Source: Bacilli bacterium (lineage in GTDB: Bacteria > Bacillota_I > Bacilli_A > RF39 > UBA660). From it: DNA of 64,000 bases. The notes under the pieces were generated by a model, which made no database searches, was not told where the DNA came from, and was given only the letters and a program-made list of their open reading frames with translations. The stretch covers positions 40,091 through 104,090 of the forward strand of contig JAVBQF010000006.1 in the NCBI GenBank assembly GCA_031549195.1, written 5' to 3'. Of this stretch, positions 14,087 through 62,262 are shown piece after piece (position 1 is the first letter of the stretch; each line of letters begins with the position of its first letter). A program made the translations under genes and the position numbers.

Positions 14087-14115
14087 TTGACTTTAAATTT
14101 TATTTAAGTTAAAAT
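14087..14115 (+). promoter_or_regulatory. Sigma-A-type promoter for tRNA-Cys (TTGACT-17-TAAAAT)
   Basis: Read directly from the sequence. It lies 18 nt upstream of the tRNA 5' end. Confidence 0.45.
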
Positions 14116-14133: not shown

Positions 14134-14207
14134 GGGTCCATAGCCAAGTGGTAAGGCGTGGGACTGCAACTCCCTGATCGTTGGTTCAAATCCGACTGGG
14201 CCCTCCA
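14134..14207 (+). tRNA. tRNA-Cys (anticodon GCA) with encoded CCA
   Basis: Manual cloverleaf: acceptor GGGTCCA pairs with TGGGCCC, with a G-U wobble at pair 4. The D-arm is GCC/GGC. The anticodon loop is CTGCAAC, giving GCA. The T-arm is GTTGG-TTCAAAT-CCGAC, followed by discriminator T and CCA. Confidence 0.8.
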
Positions 14208-14209
14208 AT

Positions 14210-14270
14210 TAGAAGATTAAGAAGATTCCAAACTTTGGGGGTCTTCTTTTATTTTAAAATAATGTATAAT
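14210..14270 (+). repeat. Intergenic repeat A, copy 1 (~60 bp): GAAGA...TCTTC hairpin plus T-run, then a TG-extended -10 (TGTATAAT)
   Basis: TAGAAGATTAAGAAgattccAACTTTGGGGGTCTTCTTTTATTTtAAAATAATGTATAAT. It matches the copy at 14897-14956 except for one 6-nt block and one A/T change. It lies immediately 3' of tRNA-Cys. Confidence 0.7.
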
Positions 14271-14293
14271 TAAATTAAAAGGGAGAGATAATA

Positions 14294-14841
14294 ATGACAT
14301 TAGAAACAGAAAGACTAATTTTGAGAGAATGGGAAGAAAAAGATATCAATGATTTAATTGAAGGATTAAATAATATTGAAGTATCTAAATGGTTAGCGTT
14401 TGTTCCTTATCCTTACACAGAAAAAGATGCTAAAAGTTGGATTGATTATTGTTTAGAAAATTCTAAAAAAGAAAACAAAACTGCATATGAATTTGCTATT
14501 GTGTTGAAGGTAGAAAATAAAGTGATTGGTGGAACTAGCTTAGATAAAGTTAATAAGTCACAAGGAACTGCTGGTGGAGGTATTTGGATAAATGCAAAAT
14601 ATCATGGAAAAGGATAAGGTAGTGAAGCGTTTGGAAAAAGAATAGAATTTGCTTTTGATAAATTAAATTTAAGAAGGATAGATAATGGTTTCTTTGTTGG
14701 AAATGAATCATCATTTAAAATGCAAGAAAGATTTGGTTATAAAATTGAAGATTTAAAGAGGCAAGCATATATTTGTCGAGCAGATGGTAAAATAAAAGAT
14801 GAACAGTTAACAGGTTTGTTAAAAGAAGAGTGGAAAAGATA
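14294..14841 (+). pseudogene. GNAT (RimL/RimJ-like) N-acetyltransferase disrupted by an in-frame TAA and an apparent 1-nt frameshift near the 3' end
   Basis: The N-terminal part 14294-14617 ends at TAA exactly where motif A reads GKG-Y-GSEA (observed GKG*GSEA). The same frame continues with conserved GNAT C-terminal sequence (RIEFAFDKLNLRRIDNGFFVGNESSFKMQERFGYKIEDLKRQ). The canonical ending LLKEEWKR* appears only after a -1 shift in the A-run at ~14819-14822. Without the shift, the frame runs on into the intergenic repeat. Confidence 0.55.
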
Positions 14842-14844
14842 AAT

Positions 14845-14878
14845 TAAAGAAAGGTAAAAAAATAAAAGTTTGGAAGCC
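14845..14878 (+). repeat. Intergenic repeat B, copy 1 (AAAGAAAGGTA...AAAAGTTTGGAAGCCC)
   Basis: Near-identical to 15557-15591. Both copies lie directly after the stop of a cassette gene. Confidence 0.6.
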
Positions 14879-14896
14879 CTTTATATTTTCTCTAGT

Positions 14897-14956
14897 TAGA
14901 AGATTAAGAATGGCCCAACTTTGGGGGTCTTCTTTTATTTAAAAATAATGTATAAT
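14897..14956 (+). repeat. Intergenic repeat A, copy 2 (terminator-like hairpin plus extended -10 promoter), preceding the HAD gene
   Basis: See copy 1. TGTATAAT lies ~22 nt upstream of the ATG at 14979. Confidence 0.7.
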
Positions 14957-14978
14957 CTATTTTAGAAGGTGATAAAAA

Positions 14979-15557
14979 ATGATAAAAGCAATAATTTTTG
15001 ATTATTTTAAAACGATAACACTTGAATCAGAATTAGGAGTTTTACGACAATATGACCCCTCACGAATATATGAAAAAGAAATAAAGGCGCTTATTGAACA
15101 ATATGATAAAGGTAAAAGTATAAATTGGCTTTGTGAAGAAATAAGTAAAATTAATGGAACTCCAGCTAATGAATTAGTAAGAGCTTATAATAATCAGCCA
15201 GAACTTAAATTAAACATTGAACTGATAGACTTTATACTAAATGAGTTAAAAGGTAAATATAAAATTGGATTACTTTCAAATATTGGCGCCGAACCTAAAC
15301 AACTAGCTAATGTTAATAATCATTTATTTTTTGATGACAAAGTATTATCATTTGAAGTTGGGATAATTAAGCCTGATCCTGCTATTTATCTACTTGCAGC
15401 AAAACGACTAGATGTTATGCCGGAAGAATGTATTTTTGTTGACGATATAGCTATAAATGTAAATGCAGCAGAATCTACAGGCATGAAAGGTATTATGTTT
15501 AAAAACTATAATGAATTTTTAGTAGACTTAAATGAGATATTAAAAAGCAATAAATAA
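14979..15557 (+). CDS. HAD-superfamily hydrolase (subfamily IA-like) with a non-canonical motif I
   Basis: Motif IV FVDDIAINVNAAESTG, a motif III Lys region, and an N-terminal IIFDYFKT where DxDxT is expected. The second Asp is absent. Confidence 0.55.
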   Translation: MIKAIIFDYFKTITLESELGVLRQYDPSRIYEKEIKALIEQYDKGKSINWLCEEISKINGTPANELVRAYNNQPELKLNIELIDFILNELKGKYKIGLLSNIGAEPKQLANVNNHLFFDDKVLSFEVGIIKPDPAIYLLAAKRLDVMPEECIFVDDIAINVNAAESTGMKGIMFKNYNEFLVDLNEILKSNK

Positions 15558-15591
15558 AAGAAAGGTACTAAAAAGAAAAGTTTGGAAGACC
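15557..15591 (+). repeat. Intergenic repeat B, copy 2
   Basis: AAAGAAAGGTActAAAAAgAAAAGTTTGGAAGaCC compared with copy 1. Confidence 0.6.
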
Positions 15592-15645
15592 ATTTGCATT
15601 CCCTCCATAAGTAGAATCTGAACTTTTATGTTCATTTATATAAAT

Positions 15646-15682
15646 AACCACTGTAAATAGAGCGATTACAGTGGTTTTTTCT
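15646..15682 (+). terminator. Rho-independent terminator (AACCACTGTAA-9nt-TTACAGTGGTT plus TTTTTT)
   Basis: Perfect 11-bp stem followed by a T-run, read directly. Confidence 0.7.
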
Positions 15683-15726
15683 TTTCTAAAAATAGTATAT
15701 AATTAAAGTGGTAGGAGGTAATATCG

Positions 15727-16116
15727 ATGAAATTAAGTTCAGTTGTAATAGACTCAGACAACGCAAAAGAATTATCCGAATTTTATGAAAAGATATTAGG
15801 TTGGGAGAGAAAAGTATATAATCATGGTGATAATGGTGATTGGATTGTACTTAGAAACAAAGAAGAAAGTACTACTCGCTTAGTTTTTCAAGAAGTAGTC
15901 AATTTTGCTAAACCGATATGGCCTGAAGAGGAAAGCCAGCAACAACAAATGATACATTTAGATTTTTATTCTGATAATGTCGAAAAAGATATAGAACATG
16001 CTATTAATTGTGGCGCAGTTCTAGCAAATTATCAATCTGGTGATTGGAAAGTTTTGATTGATCCTGCTGGACATCCTTTTTGTATTGTACCAACAAGACA
16101 AAATAGGGTAAATTAG
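15727..16116 (+). CDS. VOC-family protein (glyoxalase/bleomycin-resistance/dioxygenase fold)
   Basis: Small ~130-aa beta-alpha-beta-beta-beta module pattern (MKLSSVVIDSDNAKELSEFYEKILGWER ... HLDFYSDNVEKDIEHAINCGA). RBS is GGAGG. Confidence 0.55.
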   Translation: MKLSSVVIDSDNAKELSEFYEKILGWERKVYNHGDNGDWIVLRNKEESTTRLVFQEVVNFAKPIWPEEESQQQQMIHLDFYSDNVEKDIEHAINCGAVLANYQSGDWKVLIDPAGHPFCIVPTRQNRVN

Positions 16117-16255
16117 AGATAAAAAGCATAAATAAAAATGCAAAATGGAAGCTGTAAATCTCACTCAAATCACTCCATTTGAAATAAGGGAAATCTACAT
16201 GTAGGTTTCTTTTCTTACTGAAAACGTATCGAATATAATAAATGCAGCAAAAAAA

Positions 16256-16291
16256 AAGATGATTTTGAGTTGTAATACTCTTAATCATCTT
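16256..16291. terminator. Bidirectional terminator hairpin (AAGATGATT-18nt-AATCATCTT) between the convergent VOC and zinc-ribbon genes
   Basis: 9-bp perfect stem. An A-run lies on the 5' side and T-rich sequence on the 3' side. Confidence 0.45.
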
Positions 16292-16293
16292 TA

Positions 16294-17703
16294 TTATTGT
16301 ATAGAAAGTAATTTATTATTTACTCTTGTTTGAACTTCAACATAATATTTAAACTCAGCATCATTCAAATCACTATCTTCCCATTTAACAAACTCATCTG
16401 AATATGTATTGTAATTTTTAAGCATATTCGCATAGTCAGTAATTAAAGTTAAATCACTTCCGTCTGAATTAGAATATTTTTTCATAAATTCTACATAATC
16501 ATTCATAAACTTTTCGTAGCTATCCATTGCTTTTTTAAAATCTGTTCTTAAACCGTTTTTATCAGTATTATCAGTACTATTCGTTGGATCTGAAGATTTT
16601 AAGGATACTTCCATTACATTACCACCAAGGTACATTAAATGAAGCTCATACCCATCACTATTTTTAGCTCTATAAGATTTTTTACTTTTACTATGGTCAA
16701 TTGTATATCCTTTATTTTCACATTCTACAACATACTCATTATATTCATCTAGTGTTGTATTTCCAATATGAACAATGAAACTTTCATTATTGTCCCATGA
16801 TATATTTCCCATATTAGATTTTGTTGCAGGTAATTTACTTCCTAATCCGTTAGCTGGCCATGAAAACTCTTCTAATGTTTCAGGTTTTTTTAATGTAATA
16901 CTCATATATTCACCTTGTTCCAAATAACTAATTCTAATTGAATAGCCATCTATATTAAAAGCACCATATACTGTATCCCAATCTTCATATTCTAAATCAA
17001 TAGTGTATCCCTTTTCTGTTACTTGATTATTTACATAATTTTTATAATCTTTTTCGGTGATATTAGTTATATCAAGAATTAATAAATCTTTTCTATTAGT
17101 ACCTAGCTTACCAAAAAGTTTTTTTGGCTCAGGTAAATATTCTTTTAATTCAATGTCATTAATATCAATATCAATAGATTTTTCTTCTTTATATGAAGAA
17201 TCCCCACCAGTATTAAGAATAGGTACAATTAGAACAAAAGCAAGAATAGTTAAAATAATTTTCAAACCTTTCAATGGTTCTTTAATTATTTCCATCCCCA
17301 TTAACCAAGCACCAATAAATAATCCAGCTTGCACTAAGGTTAAAGCTTTTACTAGAAAACCTGTCCCAACAAAGAATAATAAAACTGCAATTCCAAAAAA
17401 TATTAATAAAACTTTACTAAATTTACTTTTCTTAAATTTTTCTTTTGCATTAACTTTATCTAGAACTTCCTTTTCCCTTAAGTCCTGTTCAAGTTTATTG
17501 TTTCTTTCTTTTATATCTTGTTCATGATTGTCTTTTCGGGCTTTTAGTTTTGCTTCTTCAATTCTTTTAACTTTGGTAGCTTCATCGTCAATTAAGACTT
17601 CTGATCCACAAAAATTGCAATGGATTTTATCTAAATCTTTATTAACTTCTAATGATGCACCGCAATTTTCACATTTCATTTTAATTAAATTCAAATCTCT
17701 CAC
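16294..17703 (-). CDS. Zinc-ribbon plus coiled-coil plus multi-TM protein with two tandem ~75-aa C-terminal repeats. Function unknown.
   Basis: The N-terminus is CENCGASLEVNKDLDKIHCNFCGS, a CxxC...CxxC zinc ribbon. A Lys/Glu-rich coiled-coil follows, then 3-4 TM helices. The repeated modules are ...EKGYTIDLEYEDWDTVYGAFNIDGYSIRISYLEQGEYMSITLK and ...NKGYTIDHSKSKKSYRAKNSDGYELHLMYLGGNVMEVSLK. Confidence 0.45.
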   Translation of the reverse strand: MRDLNLIKMKCENCGASLEVNKDLDKIHCNFCGSEVLIDDEATKVKRIEEAKLKARKDNHEQDIKERNNKLEQDLREKEVLDKVNAKEKFKKSKFSKVLLIFFGIAVLLFFVGTGFLVKALTLVQAGLFIGAWLMGMEIIKEPLKGLKIILTILAFVLIVPILNTGGDSSYKEEKSIDIDINDIELKEYLPEPKKLFGKLGTNRKDLLILDITNITEKDYKNYVNNQVTEKGYTIDLEYEDWDTVYGAFNIDGYSIRISYLEQGEYMSITLKKPETLEEFSWPANGLGSKLPATKSNMGNISWDNNESFIVHIGNTTLDEYNEYVVECENKGYTIDHSKSKKSYRAKNSDGYELHLMYLGGNVMEVSLKSSDPTNSTDNTDKNGLRTDFKKAMDSYEKFMNDYVEFMKKYSNSDGSDLTLITDYANMLKNYNTYSDEFVKWEDSDLNDAEFKYYVEVQTRVNNKLLSIQ

Positions 17704-17925
17704 TCCTTATAAAACCATTATACAATCTAATATGTAATTTGTTAATACTTTCAATTGCATTAGTTTCATTATTTAAAATACAAAATAAAAATATACTCAC
17801 AAAAAACATAAATACATAGCCGGGTAAAATGTTAGTTTATTAATATTAACTATAATCAAATTTATTTTAATTGTAGTATATACTTCACAATAAAAATGTT
17901 ACAATTATATCATGAGGTATTTAGT

Positions 17926-18735
17926 ATGGGTAAAATGGAATTAGAAGTAAAGATATTAAATGTTGATGAAACACAATTTATAAAAAAATTAGAGACATTG
18001 GGTGCTACTTTTAAAGAAAAGAGTAAACAGTGTTTATATACCTATGATTTGCCAACTATATATGGAAAATATATTGATATTTTAACTCAGCTAAATGATA
18101 GGGGAAGCGATATTAAATATGAAACAGCTATTTCTAAACTAAAATTATTATTTTTTGAGATAGATAATTTACTTTCAAACGATGATAGAAAAGAATTAAA
18201 AAAAATAATAAATAATGAAAGGCTATCATCACTATTAGAAAAGGATAATTTATTGGAGTTATTAAATGATACCAACTTAATAAATGTTATTAACAAATTT
18301 CATAATAATTCAAAAAAATGGATCAGATTAAGAGAGACAAATGATAAAACAACAATTGCAGTAAAACATATTCTAGCTGATAATAATACAGCCCTACAGC
18401 AGATGTTAGAAACAGAGATAGAAATTCCAAGTATAAAAGATGGAAATGAATTGCTTGAGGCATTAGGATTTTGTCATAAGAGTTATCAAGAAAAAAGAAG
18501 AATTACATATGAATATGAAGGACATGAAATAGATATTGATTCCTGGCCTGGTATTCCTACTTATTTCGAAATAGAAGGAAATAATGAAGAAGATCTAAAT
18601 GAAGTATTAAAAAAACTTGGTTATGATATAAAAGATGCAGTTTCATGTACAGCAGATGATATTTATATTATGAATGGAAAAACAATGTTTGACAAAAGAG
18701 AATTAAAGTTTAATGATAGTAAAGATAATCTATAA
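17926..18735 (+). CDS. CYTH-domain protein (CyaB/ThTPase-like triphosphate tunnel metalloenzyme)
   Basis: ExExK motif at the N-terminus (MELEVKI). C-terminal EIEIPS...YEYEGHEIDIDSWPGIPTYFEIEG is typical of a CYTH beta-barrel. The start was chosen at the ATG 6 nt after GAGGT. Confidence 0.5.
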   Translation: MGKMELEVKILNVDETQFIKKLETLGATFKEKSKQCLYTYDLPTIYGKYIDILTQLNDRGSDIKYETAISKLKLLFFEIDNLLSNDDRKELKKIINNERLSSLLEKDNLLELLNDTNLINVINKFHNNSKKWIRLRETNDKTTIAVKHILADNNTALQQMLETEIEIPSIKDGNELLEALGFCHKSYQEKRRITYEYEGHEIDIDSWPGIPTYFEIEGNNEEDLNEVLKKLGYDIKDAVSCTADDIYIMNGKTMFDKRELKFNDSKDNL

Positions 18736-18846
18736 TCATTTTATTTTTGAGCTGTGGAGATACTAATAATAGCCAATAAAATAATTTCTATATATTATGT
18801 TCACTCTTATTCATGCAAGACATATAACTATTATGGAGGGAACCTA

Positions 18847-19746
18847 ATGTTAAATAATAATGATTATATTAAAATGTCTTTAGAATTGCATCTTTTCTTT
18901 GCGCGTATTATGAAAGAGCATAGCTTTTTTTTAGCTGCAAGCTTTACTGAAAAGGATGCTGAGTATAAGAAAGTAGCCAATGATTTTCAAGCATCATTCA
19001 GTCAAGTATTAGATAATGCTATCGAGCTATCTAATGGTAATATTAGTGAGGAACTATTACGCTCAAATGAAATTGTAACAGAAAACACCTTGAAATCAGA
19101 AAAACAAAGTAGTAATCTAACAAGTATTATGATAGATGAGGCTCTTACAATAAAAGAGATGAATCTAAGGAGTGGCAATGTTATTGAAAATCCTCAATTG
19201 TTAATGAATATTAGTAACTTAAATAATAGGAGTTTACCATTAATAAAAAACCTAATTCATTTCAAAAATGACATATTAACTAATGTCCTAAATTGCAATA
19301 TGTTTACTACTAACTATCCTTTATTAATAAAACATATACTTAGCGAAGCGCAAATGTATCATGATTTACTCTTAAAAATTGAGAATAGAGAATTAGTAAC
19401 AGATGAATATCTATATAATCAAGAGTTGTTTTGGAATAATATTATGAAGGAGCATGCTGAATTTATCAGAGGACTACTTGATCCAACAGAAAAGGATTTA
19501 TTATTAATAGCAGACAAGTATGCTTATGAGTATGAAAAAATATTAAATGATTATAGAAATAACTCTTTAGAATTAACGATGAAGAGTCTAGAAGAGACAA
19601 TCAGTTTCAAAGAATTCAAAGAAGCAGGAGAAAATGGAATATTAAATTGTAAAATTAAAAGTATTATAGTACCCTTACTTGCTGATCATGTGTTAAGAGA
19701 AGCGAACCATTTTATTAGGTTGCTGAGGAGTTATAGAAGAATTTAA
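18847..19746 (+). CDS. DUF2935-like protein with two internal repeats. Function unknown.
   Basis: Duplicated motifs IMKEHSFFL and IMKEHAEFIRGLLDP. The start follows GGAGGG. This family is common in Clostridia and Bacilli. Confidence 0.4.
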   Translation: MLNNNDYIKMSLELHLFFARIMKEHSFFLAASFTEKDAEYKKVANDFQASFSQVLDNAIELSNGNISEELLRSNEIVTENTLKSEKQSSNLTSIMIDEALTIKEMNLRSGNVIENPQLLMNISNLNNRSLPLIKNLIHFKNDILTNVLNCNMFTTNYPLLIKHILSEAQMYHDLLLKIENRELVTDEYLYNQELFWNNIMKEHAEFIRGLLDPTEKDLLLIADKYAYEYEKILNDYRNNSLELTMKSLEETISFKEFKEAGENGILNCKIKSIIVPLLADHVLREANHFIRLLRSYRRI

Positions 19747-21984: not shown

Positions 21985-22310
21985 CACCTCCTTTTTAACA
22001 TAATAAAAAACAGTATTATCCCCAAATAGGGACGAATACTGTTTGATCCGCGTTGCCACCCAATTTATTATAAAATAAAATTATTTCATAATCTCTTCAT
22101 TTCAGTTCTATTAAACCTAGTAATTTGATAACGGATTACTTTCCGTCCTAATCTACTGTTACTTCGATAGGCGACTCATGAGTGTTATTCATAGTAATAT
22201 TGATATTGGCTTTCACTATCCCCAACTAGCTTAATCAAATCTTAACTATTACTTCTCTCGATCAAAGTCTTTGTGCATATAAATTTACATTATAATATGC
22301 AATTTGTCAA
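21985..22310 (-). promoter_or_regulatory. T-box riboswitch leader, probably Asn-specific, with promoter, Stem I, T-box sequence and a terminator/antiterminator
   Basis: On the minus strand: TTGACA (22310-22305) -17- TAAATT. Stem I contains GAGAGA and an AGTA K-turn motif. The candidate specifier is ...GAAUAAC A... (AAU-AAC, both Asn codons; AAC at plus 22186-22184). The T-box motif is AAUUGGGUGGCAACGCGG (plus 22064-22048). The terminator is AACAGUAUU...AAUACUGUU plus U6 (plus 22044-22005). Confidence 0.6.
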
Positions 22311-39498: not shown

Positions 39499-40095
39499 AT
39501 GAAAAAAAAACATGGAGAATTTGGTTATAAACTTTTTAGACTTATTTTAGGTCCAATATTTAAATTATATTATAATCCTAAAGTAATTGGAAAAGAGAAT
39601 ATACCGAAAGAAGGCGCAATGCTTATTGCTGGAAATCATAAGCATTTATTTGATCAGTGTCTATCAGTTATATCAACAAAAAGAGTAATACACTACATGG
39701 CAAAAAAAGAACATCTTGATGGTAAGATGGGATGGTTTTTTAGATCGTGCGGATGTATACGTGTAGATAGAAGTATTAAAGATGAAAACGCAAAGGCAGA
39801 AGCACTTGATGTATTAAATGATGGTGGAGCAATCGGAATATTTCCAGAGGGAACAAGAAATAGAACAGAAGCTTTCTTATTACCATTTAAGTTTGGTGTA
39901 GTATCTATGGCAAGTAAAACAGATGCGACTATTGTACCGTTTGGACTTACTGGTGATTATAAATTCAGAAGCAAAAACTTAACTGTTAGATTTGGTAGGC
40001 CATTTAAAGTAGGAAATATGACTTTAGAAGAAGCTAATAAAAAATTAGAAGAAGAAGTTGGAAAGTTAATGAAGGAGAGTTTGAATAAAAGGTAA
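39499..40095 (+). CDS. Second PlsC/LPLAT-family acyltransferase
   Basis: NHKHLFD (HxxxxD), FPEGTRNRT, LPFKFGVV. Confidence 0.6.
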   Translation: MKKKHGEFGYKLFRLILGPIFKLYYNPKVIGKENIPKEGAMLIAGNHKHLFDQCLSVISTKRVIHYMAKKEHLDGKMGWFFRSCGCIRVDRSIKDENAKAEALDVLNDGGAIGIFPEGTRNRTEAFLLPFKFGVVSMASKTDATIVPFGLTGDYKFRSKNLTVRFGRPFKVGNMTLEEANKKLEEEVGKLMKESLNKR

Positions 40096-62017: not shown

Positions 62018-62262
62018 AGATATTATAATATAATACTTTAAAAGCAATGAAGCTGAGGAGTAAATTAATAATTATTGATAGAGAGTTAGTGTTTGATGGA
62101 AACTAATAATAGTATTAATTGAAGGTAGCAGCAGAGTTTAATTTCTAAGTAAATAGGAAATTACGTATTAATGCGTTAAATTGTTGAGTGTGTGATTTTT
62201 CACAAACTAAGGTGGTACCGCGATAACTCGTCCTTATATAGAAATATATAAGGGCTTTTTTA
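62018..62262 (+). promoter_or_regulatory. T-box riboswitch leader with promoter TTTACA-17-TATAAT; presumed Val specificity based on the valS context
   Basis: The promoter is at 62018-62046. The T-box motif AACUAAGGUGGUACCGCG is at 62204-62222. A strong terminator CCUUAUAUA-gaaa-UAUAUAAGG plus U6 is at 62230-62262, overlapping the antiterminator. The specifier codon is not assigned with confidence. Confidence 0.6.

Follow-up and report, generated by a model that had tools for sequence, protein, structure and literature searches.

A terminator–promoter module repeated downstream of tRNA-Cys frames two unrelated genes in an uncultured Bacilli genome and may record serial insertion at the tRNA 3′ end

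The stretch of DNA described here is a 64-kb window (positions 40,091 to 104,090 of contig JAVBQF010000006.1, assembly GCA_031549195.1) from a Bacilli bacterium of an uncultured, low-GC (29%) lineage. The sole tRNA gene of the window, tRNA-Cys(GCA), is followed by a run of three small genes that encode a GNAT acetyltransferase, a HAD-family hydrolase, and a Glyoxalase_6 (VOC-type) protein. The first two are framed by a pair of repeated elements: a copy of element A lies ahead of each gene, and a copy of element B follows it (Table 1). This two-fold layout, proposed in a first-pass annotation made from the letters alone, was confirmed by a repeat finder and by pairwise alignments. In addition, the Logan assembly of SRR23967709 (contig L001; loci other than the window are referred to by L numbers) is identical to the window over 14139–19231, including the four repeat copies and the stop codon within the GNAT gene. 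An assembly artefact is therefore an improbable source of the pattern, with the proviso that SRR23967709 may be the read set from which the genome of the window was assembled. The modular repeat downstream of tRNA-Cys is real and non-random.

Table 1. Features of the tRNA-Cys locus in the window, and copies of a conserved non-coding element in related loci
Feature	Sequence	Coordinates	Strand	Evidence or remarks
Promoter-like site of the tRNA gene, TTGACT-17-TAAAAT	window	14087–14115	+	consensus scan
tRNA-Cys(GCA)	window	14134–14207	+	ARAGORN, Rfam; last 5–7 nt (CCCTCCA) are part of the repeated unit
Element A1	window	14203–14270	+	tRNA 3′ end, 11-bp predicted terminator hairpin (14219–14248), T-run, TATAAT (14265–14270)
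GNAT (Acetyltransf_3, RimJ/RimL-like), predicted pseudogene	window	14294–14842	+	in-frame TAA at 14615–14617
Element B1 and spacer	window	14839–14889	+	from GNAT stop codon to tRNA-end-like junction
Element A2	window	14890–14956	+	CTCTA junction, hairpin (~14906–14934), T-run, TATAAT (14951–14956)
HAD-family hydrolase (HAD_2), intact	window	14979–15557	+	Pfam
Element B2 and spacer	window	15550–15607	+	ends in CCCTCCA (15601–15607), identical to tRNA-Cys 3′ end
Possible decayed third A-like stretch	window	15608–15703	+	similarity near background; includes an unrelated strong hairpin and TATAAT
Strong terminator-type hairpin unlike A, HAD–VOC spacer	window	15649–15680	+	TATAAT follows at 15698–15703, 23 nt ahead of the VOC start codon
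Glyoxalase_6 gene (VOC-type), last of the three small genes	window	15727–16116	+	membership in the repeat system uncertain
Conserved ~110-nt element	L028	16222–16340		first of two copies
Conserved ~110-nt element	L028	16688–16800		second of two copies
Conserved ~110-nt element	L038	15855–15979	−	
Conserved ~110-nt element	L077	16070–16184	−	
Conserved ~110-nt element	L021	6350–6470	−	
Conserved ~110-nt element	L071	3115–3235		
Conserved ~110-nt element	L055	9430–9550		

Element A begins inside the tRNA gene. As delimited in the first-pass annotation, A1 and A2 are identical at 56 of 62 positions (90%). The similarity reaches further left, 5 nt into the tRNA (CTCCA in A1 and CTCTA in A2), which extends the element to 68 nt with 61 of 69 positions identical (88%). 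The copies had been said to differ by a 6-nt block alone; beyond this block (GATTCCA in A1 and the 1-nt shorter TGGCCC in A2), they differ by one T/A change and by two changes at the left edge. The match between A1 and A2 has an nhmmer E of ~1e-8 in a 1.5-Mb search space, and across the 64 kb the 24-mers of A are confined to these two sites (expected by chance, 0).

Structurally, A1 contains an 11-bp hairpin (dG −16.2 kcal/mol, z −2.8) followed by TTTTATTTT, which together form a putative, terminator-like end of the tRNA transcription unit. The hairpin of A2 still pairs, in a shifted register, despite the block change. Both copies were detected by an intrinsic-terminator scan for a G+C-containing hairpin with a T-run (two found versus 0.8 expected), in agreement with the hairpin and T-run noted at first pass. 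Next to the hairpin, TGTATAAT holds a perfect TATAAT; its distance to the start codon is 23 nt in A1 (GNAT) and 22 nt in A2 (HAD). The box had been called an extended −10; the TATAAT stands, and the label "extended" was dropped because TG directly abuts the hexamer without the one-base gap of the canonical TGnTATAAT. The latter motif has 14 occurrences elsewhere on the + strand of the window and is common before genes. Element A is, as predicted from its sequence, the intrinsic terminator of tRNA-Cys joined to a −10 promoter box, and each framed gene would have a terminator–promoter module of its own, as proposed earlier. The hairpin and T-run directly after the tRNA and the TATAAT at 22–23 nt from the start codons resemble a terminator followed by a sigma-70-type −10 module, a geometry common to other promoter-like sites of the window. 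The difference lies in the whole 68-nt unit being copied almost verbatim before a second, unrelated gene. The start codon of the VOC gene likewise has a TATAAT at 23 nt; the hairpin that precedes this box is another and stronger one. A resemblance of this HAD–VOC promoter region to A and a putative fourth copy after the VOC gene were rejected or downgraded; in both cases, the score equals that obtained against other intergenic regions of the window.

Element B is shorter. B1 and B2 both begin at the stop codons of the adjacent genes and are identical at 39 of 45 positions (87%) over ~45 nt, with a 1-nt indel. Extended by the spacer, the identity is 47 of 59 positions, running up to the tRNA-end-like sequences CTCTAG and CCTCCA; on sequence alone, the B match is modest (nhmmer E = 0.07 in 1.5 Mb). 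The HAD–VOC spacer aligns with the GNAT–HAD spacer over B and spacer and then reaches CCCTCCA, a heptamer of which the window has just three + strand copies. A second link between the elements is the 11-mer TTCCAAACTTT, which is found once on the + strand (in the loop of A1), twice on the − strand (in B1 and B2), and nowhere else in the window; B1 contains AAAGTTTGGAA, the reverse complement of this loop 11-mer. As the 11-mer is inverted between A and B, an inverted pair AAAGTT...AACTTT flanks the tRNA-end-like junction in both spacers, and the analogous junction in the related locus L016 is flanked by the pair AAAAAGTT...AACTTTTT. Such a bracketing inverted configuration occurs at 0.4–0.8% of random positions, a result that is suggestive only, since the motif was picked after the data had been seen. 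A dif/Xer-like reading of ATAATGTATAAT was dropped by eye and without a formal test, its arms being devoid of dif-like symmetry. At a relaxed threshold (E ≤ 10), Rfam detects neither a tRNA remnant nor a known RNA in the spacers.

As first proposed, no relationship exists between the enclosed genes: GNAT and HAD belong to different Pfam families and have only the 68-nt and 45-nt frames in common. Hence, a plain tandem duplication is excluded. The GNAT gene carries an in-frame TAA in place of the conserved Tyr of the motif KGYG, a residue kept by its homologues, of which the intact ones are 181–220 aa long. It is predicted to be a true pseudogene in this strain, given that the Logan contig carries the same stop, with the reservation made above for that read set. 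The best GNAT homologue is 81% and the HAD homologues are 66–73% identical at the amino acid level; they occur in other contexts in relatives, none with A or B, and GNAT, HAD, and VOC are not neighbors of one another there. At the DNA level, the homology of GNAT and HAD to the genes of relatives begins 9–20 nt before the ATG and stops at the stop codon. The GNAT family is 65–81% identical across records named as Deltaproteobacteria, Candidatus Shapirobacteria (of the candidate-phyla radiation), Nanoarchaeota, Woesearchaeota, Pedobacter, and Bacillota. This pattern of the Acetyltransf_3 GNAT points to a probable very wide horizontal spread, as expected of often-transferred cargo. For HAD, a search of viral contigs gave distant relatives only. 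In an unrelated contig of higher GC content (L097, 484–1190), 39 nt separate a HAD homologue (68% aa identity) from the tRNA-Cys(GCA) ahead of it, and another tRNA begins after the HAD gene; it is unlikely by chance that HAD adjoins tRNA-Cys in two distant genomes. Homologues of GNAT and HAD in relatives are also located just upstream of uvrB, in otherwise differing contexts (L106, 4960–7601; L093, 468–4359; L094, 78–1940), which suggests that this position is a second variable spot in the clade.

The gene upstream of the tRNA encodes a 549-aa membrane protein that serves as an anchor for comparisons. Its best match (58%) is in a 2.4-kb metagenome contig, and the best match in species-representative genomes is 41%; the records are gut metagenome-assembled genomes (uncultured Bacilli, Mollicutes, and Clostridium sp. 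CAG). The order of anchor gene and tRNA-Cys is kept in many relatives, and the content downstream of the tRNA is not. The distance from tRNA-Cys to the ABC_C39/FtsA/FtsZ genes ranges from 0.14 to 11.6 kb, with unrelated genes between. In L003, the tRNA is 140 nt from the ABC_C39 transporter, which is followed by FtsA and FtsZ; other relatives have 0.9–3 kb of unrelated genes in this interval, and the window has 11.6 kb. In the closest relative (L092), the tRNA-Cys is 97% identical, whereas its terminator cannot be aligned to that of the window and the gene that comes next is another one. Among these distant relatives, the stretch after tRNA-Cys is variable.

Duplications of a tRNA flank are not confined to the window. 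All 66 tRNAs in the fetched loci were tested for downstream copies of their own 3′ flank, and the duplication was shown to recur independently in three relatives, at tRNA-Cys, tRNA-Gly, and tRNA-Leu. At the tRNA-Cys of L028, 121 nt (79% identity) recur at an offset of +459, and at the tRNA-Leu of L055, 48 nt (96%) recur at +468, in both cases with non-coding sequence between. At the tRNA-Gly of L016, 77 nt (84%) recur at +1501 and enclose one SLFN/AlbA_2 gene, which is followed by a Dcm methylase gene. L029 and L015 are weaker cases. The repeats of the three relatives start 4–6 nt inside the tRNA (CTCCA in L028, GCTCCA in L016, and GTAYCA in L055). In L016, the gene beside tRNA-Gly is of the SLFN/AlbA_2-HATPase_c_4 type and sits within a direct repeat of tRNA end and terminator. 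Compared with L016 (12251–15269), locus L018 (12300–13348; 76–82% nucleotide identity) is without 7.4 kb after tRNA-Gly. No integrase was found in this tRNA-Gly stretch of L016. The duplicated flank of L028 belongs to a conserved non-coding element of ~110 nt; other genomes have it immediately after tRNA-Cys or tRNA-Leu as well (Table 1). Its core, TTGCATAAAATAAAAAGGGAACATTCA...TGAATGT, forms a hairpin; the element is a tandem duplicate in L028, has no Rfam match, and shows weak covariation.

Elements A and B themselves were found nowhere beyond the described copies. Within the window, there are none further; outside it, nhmmer searched 1.4 Mb of related loci with either element and with the complete spacers and detected none. 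An exact 20-mer of A has no match in GTDB representative genomes or in IMG/VR, and the seven matches in JGI metagenomes are chance matches, all in unrelated, higher-GC sequence that has the 20-mer alone in common. In blastn of the locus against plasmid and phage collections, the tRNA matched and nothing else did. A dispersed repeat family is not supported, since neither the window nor the searched collections contain extra copies. In these searches, the repeats are unique to this locus, and the GNAT and HAD genes of relatives lie elsewhere, without A or B. In the human-faecal phage record MT837010.1, 54 nt (19476–19529) match the internal part of tRNA-Cys (query nt 8–61) at 92.6%, which may represent a phage tRNA or a partial attachment site.

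The most probable reading, at a probability of about one half, is that single-gene segments were inserted repeatedly at the 3′ end of tRNA-Cys (accretion) and that the locus is their footprint. One unit would consist, in order, of a tRNA-end-like core (CTCCA), element A, a short 5′ untranslated region with its gene, and element B with the spacer, after which the next core would follow. Because A would be the tRNA terminator fused to a −10 box, each insertion would leave a copy of A ahead of the next gene. As an outcome, every gene would be shielded from read-through by a terminator and would have its own promoter. Candidate agents are a recombinase that acts in trans, or a recombination event anchored on the conserved tRNA with an illegitimate or microhomology joint at the G+C-rich CCCTCCA. 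This reading is the best supported because the junction lies inside the tRNA, the site is variable, the cargo is of a transferable kind, and flank duplications recur at other tRNAs. With regard to the junction, the repeats begin 5–7 nt inside the tRNA, and this boundary recurs twice (CTCTA at 14890 and CCCTCCA at 15601). The B frame around two unrelated genes is unexplained by a purely local model and fits a common cassette backbone, known from this one locus. The anatomy of the repeats, the junction within the tRNA, the variable site, and the recurrent flank duplications are observed; that insertion, as opposed to in-place duplication, made the repeats, and in which order the events took place, is inferred. 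Serial insertion or duplication, or a recombination-prone mini-island, had been suggested at first pass; the variable tRNA 3′ flank, the repeats that start inside the tRNA, and similar flank duplications beside further tRNAs of the clade speak for this suggestion, and neither a recombinase nor extra copies were found for it in the reading frames and collections searched.

Several observations weigh against accretion. Only 5–7 nt of the tRNA are repeated and most of the repeat is downstream, whereas typical attachment sites are ~40 nt long and lie within the tRNA. A and B being restricted to this locus in the searches made, such a cassette is known neither in free form nor as an alternative copy. 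A Pfam scan of ~44 open reading frames of the window, which left out four very large ones (994, 826, 976, and 1465 aa), detected no integrase or other recombinase, and none was detected by Pfam beside the tRNAs of those relatives that were scanned. The third A-like stretch past 15607 was not counted as a copy, its similarity being at the level of other intergenic regions of the window. The duplicated flank of L028 is a conserved non-coding element and not a gene cassette. Finally, the variability of the site is drawn from distant relatives, at most 58% identical in the anchor protein and none of the same species.

The alternative that survives best is an origin in place, which we consider unlikely. 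Herein, unequal or microhomology recombination between two CCCTCCA sequences, or template switching at the terminator hairpin, would have duplicated the segment; one gene copy would later have been replaced, and gene conversion, or selection acting on the terminator and promoter, would have preserved the likeness of the A copies. The privacy of the repeats to this locus, the failure of the window scan to yield a recombinase, and the presence of CCCTCCA at both potential endpoints agree with such an origin, and the pairing that the A2 hairpin retains despite its block change suggests functional constraint. However, a second, precise swap is required, in which an unrelated gene was brought in with its left limit ~20 nt ahead of the ATG and its right limit at the stop codon, and it is left unexplained why the independent duplications of the relatives all start 4–6 nt inside the tRNA.

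A quite improbable alternative regards B-spacer-A as a small mobile intergenic element, similar to miniature inverted-repeat transposable elements or repetitive extragenic palindromes, that derives from the tRNA flank and was placed between pre-existing genes. The GNAT–HAD and HAD–VOC spacers do align over B, the spacer, and a portion of A, with a score of 48 where the background reaches 37 at most, and the inverted TTCCAAACTTT common to A1 and both B copies is private to them within the window. Nevertheless, such an element should have more copies than the window, the 1.4 Mb of related loci, and the public collections provide; no terminal inverted repeats with a target-site duplication can be read from the sequence, and the genes assumed to pre-exist side by side are not neighbors in relatives.

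Cargo of the GNAT, HAD, and glyoxalase-like types is typical of chromosomal integrons. An integron-like cassette array, with B-spacer-A as a folded attC-type site and tRNA–A1 as an attI-like entry, would account for the single-gene units, the conserved non-coding joint of 130–140 nt after each gene, the array at a fixed entry point, and the inverted motif around the junction, but is highly improbable: the entry point is a tRNA end, the scanned reading frames include no IntI and no tyrosine recombinase, B-spacer-A folds no better than shuffled sequences, with z of 0.37 and −0.06 for the two strands, its motifs stand in the order GTT...AAC, as read from the sequence, instead of the RYYYAAC...GTTRRRY of attC, and every unit has a terminator and a promoter-like box whereas integron cassettes are mostly promoterless.

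Among known systems, tandem accretion of integrative elements at tRNA genes is represented in streptococci by cis-mobilizable elements and integrative and conjugative elements (CIME/ICE). The tycheposons of Prochlorococcus integrate successively at one tRNA, push older elements inward, and leave partial tRNA repeats of ~40 nt as well as degenerate remnants (bioRxiv 10.1101/2020.12.28.424599). The locus of the window resembles such accretion in the stacking at one tRNA 3′ end, the direct repeats that include the tRNA end, the small metabolic or defence cargo, and the variable site. It differs in its single-gene units of ~0.7 kb without integrase, replication, or transfer genes. Moreover, the repeat takes in only 5–7 nt of the tRNA here and otherwise consists of the terminator and promoter that lie downstream, as opposed to the ~40-nt partial tRNAs left by tycheposons. 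In this comparison, the locus is a new variant of tRNA-flank accretion.

Two further features of the window are mentioned for completeness. The region 3881–6361 matches, by size and gene order, the TraG/VirD4-like coupling-protein genes of L002 and L003, which have the Pfam domains T4SS-DNA_transf, TrwB_AAD_bind, and TraG-D_C. Since it lies between SpoIID-like and SNase genes, this open reading frame looks like a core gene of the clade and not like part of a mobile element. In addition, two T-box leaders are present at 22025–22274 (−) and 62038–62238 (+), the first of which precedes a GNAT–AsnA (aspartate–ammonia ligase) gene pair on the minus strand.

A generalization to the clade is unlikely to be correct in full and is put forward tentatively. 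The clade, one of uncultured gut Bacilli with low GC, may have a family of integrase-less, single-cargo cassettes of ~0.5–1.5 kb with their own terminator–promoter joint, which would enter the last 5–7 nt of tRNAs (Cys, Gly, and Leu) by means of a trans-acting recombinase that recognizes AAAAGTT...core...AACTTT; these would amount to integron-like arrays seeded by tRNA ends. If local duplication alone was at work, a regulatory module was simply reused beside a tRNA, a neat case but an ordinary one. If the units are true insertion products, they would be cargo units of unusually small size that bring their own promoter, enter at tRNA ends, and encode no integrase, and they could explain how single accessory genes are swapped in gut bacteria with reduced genomes.

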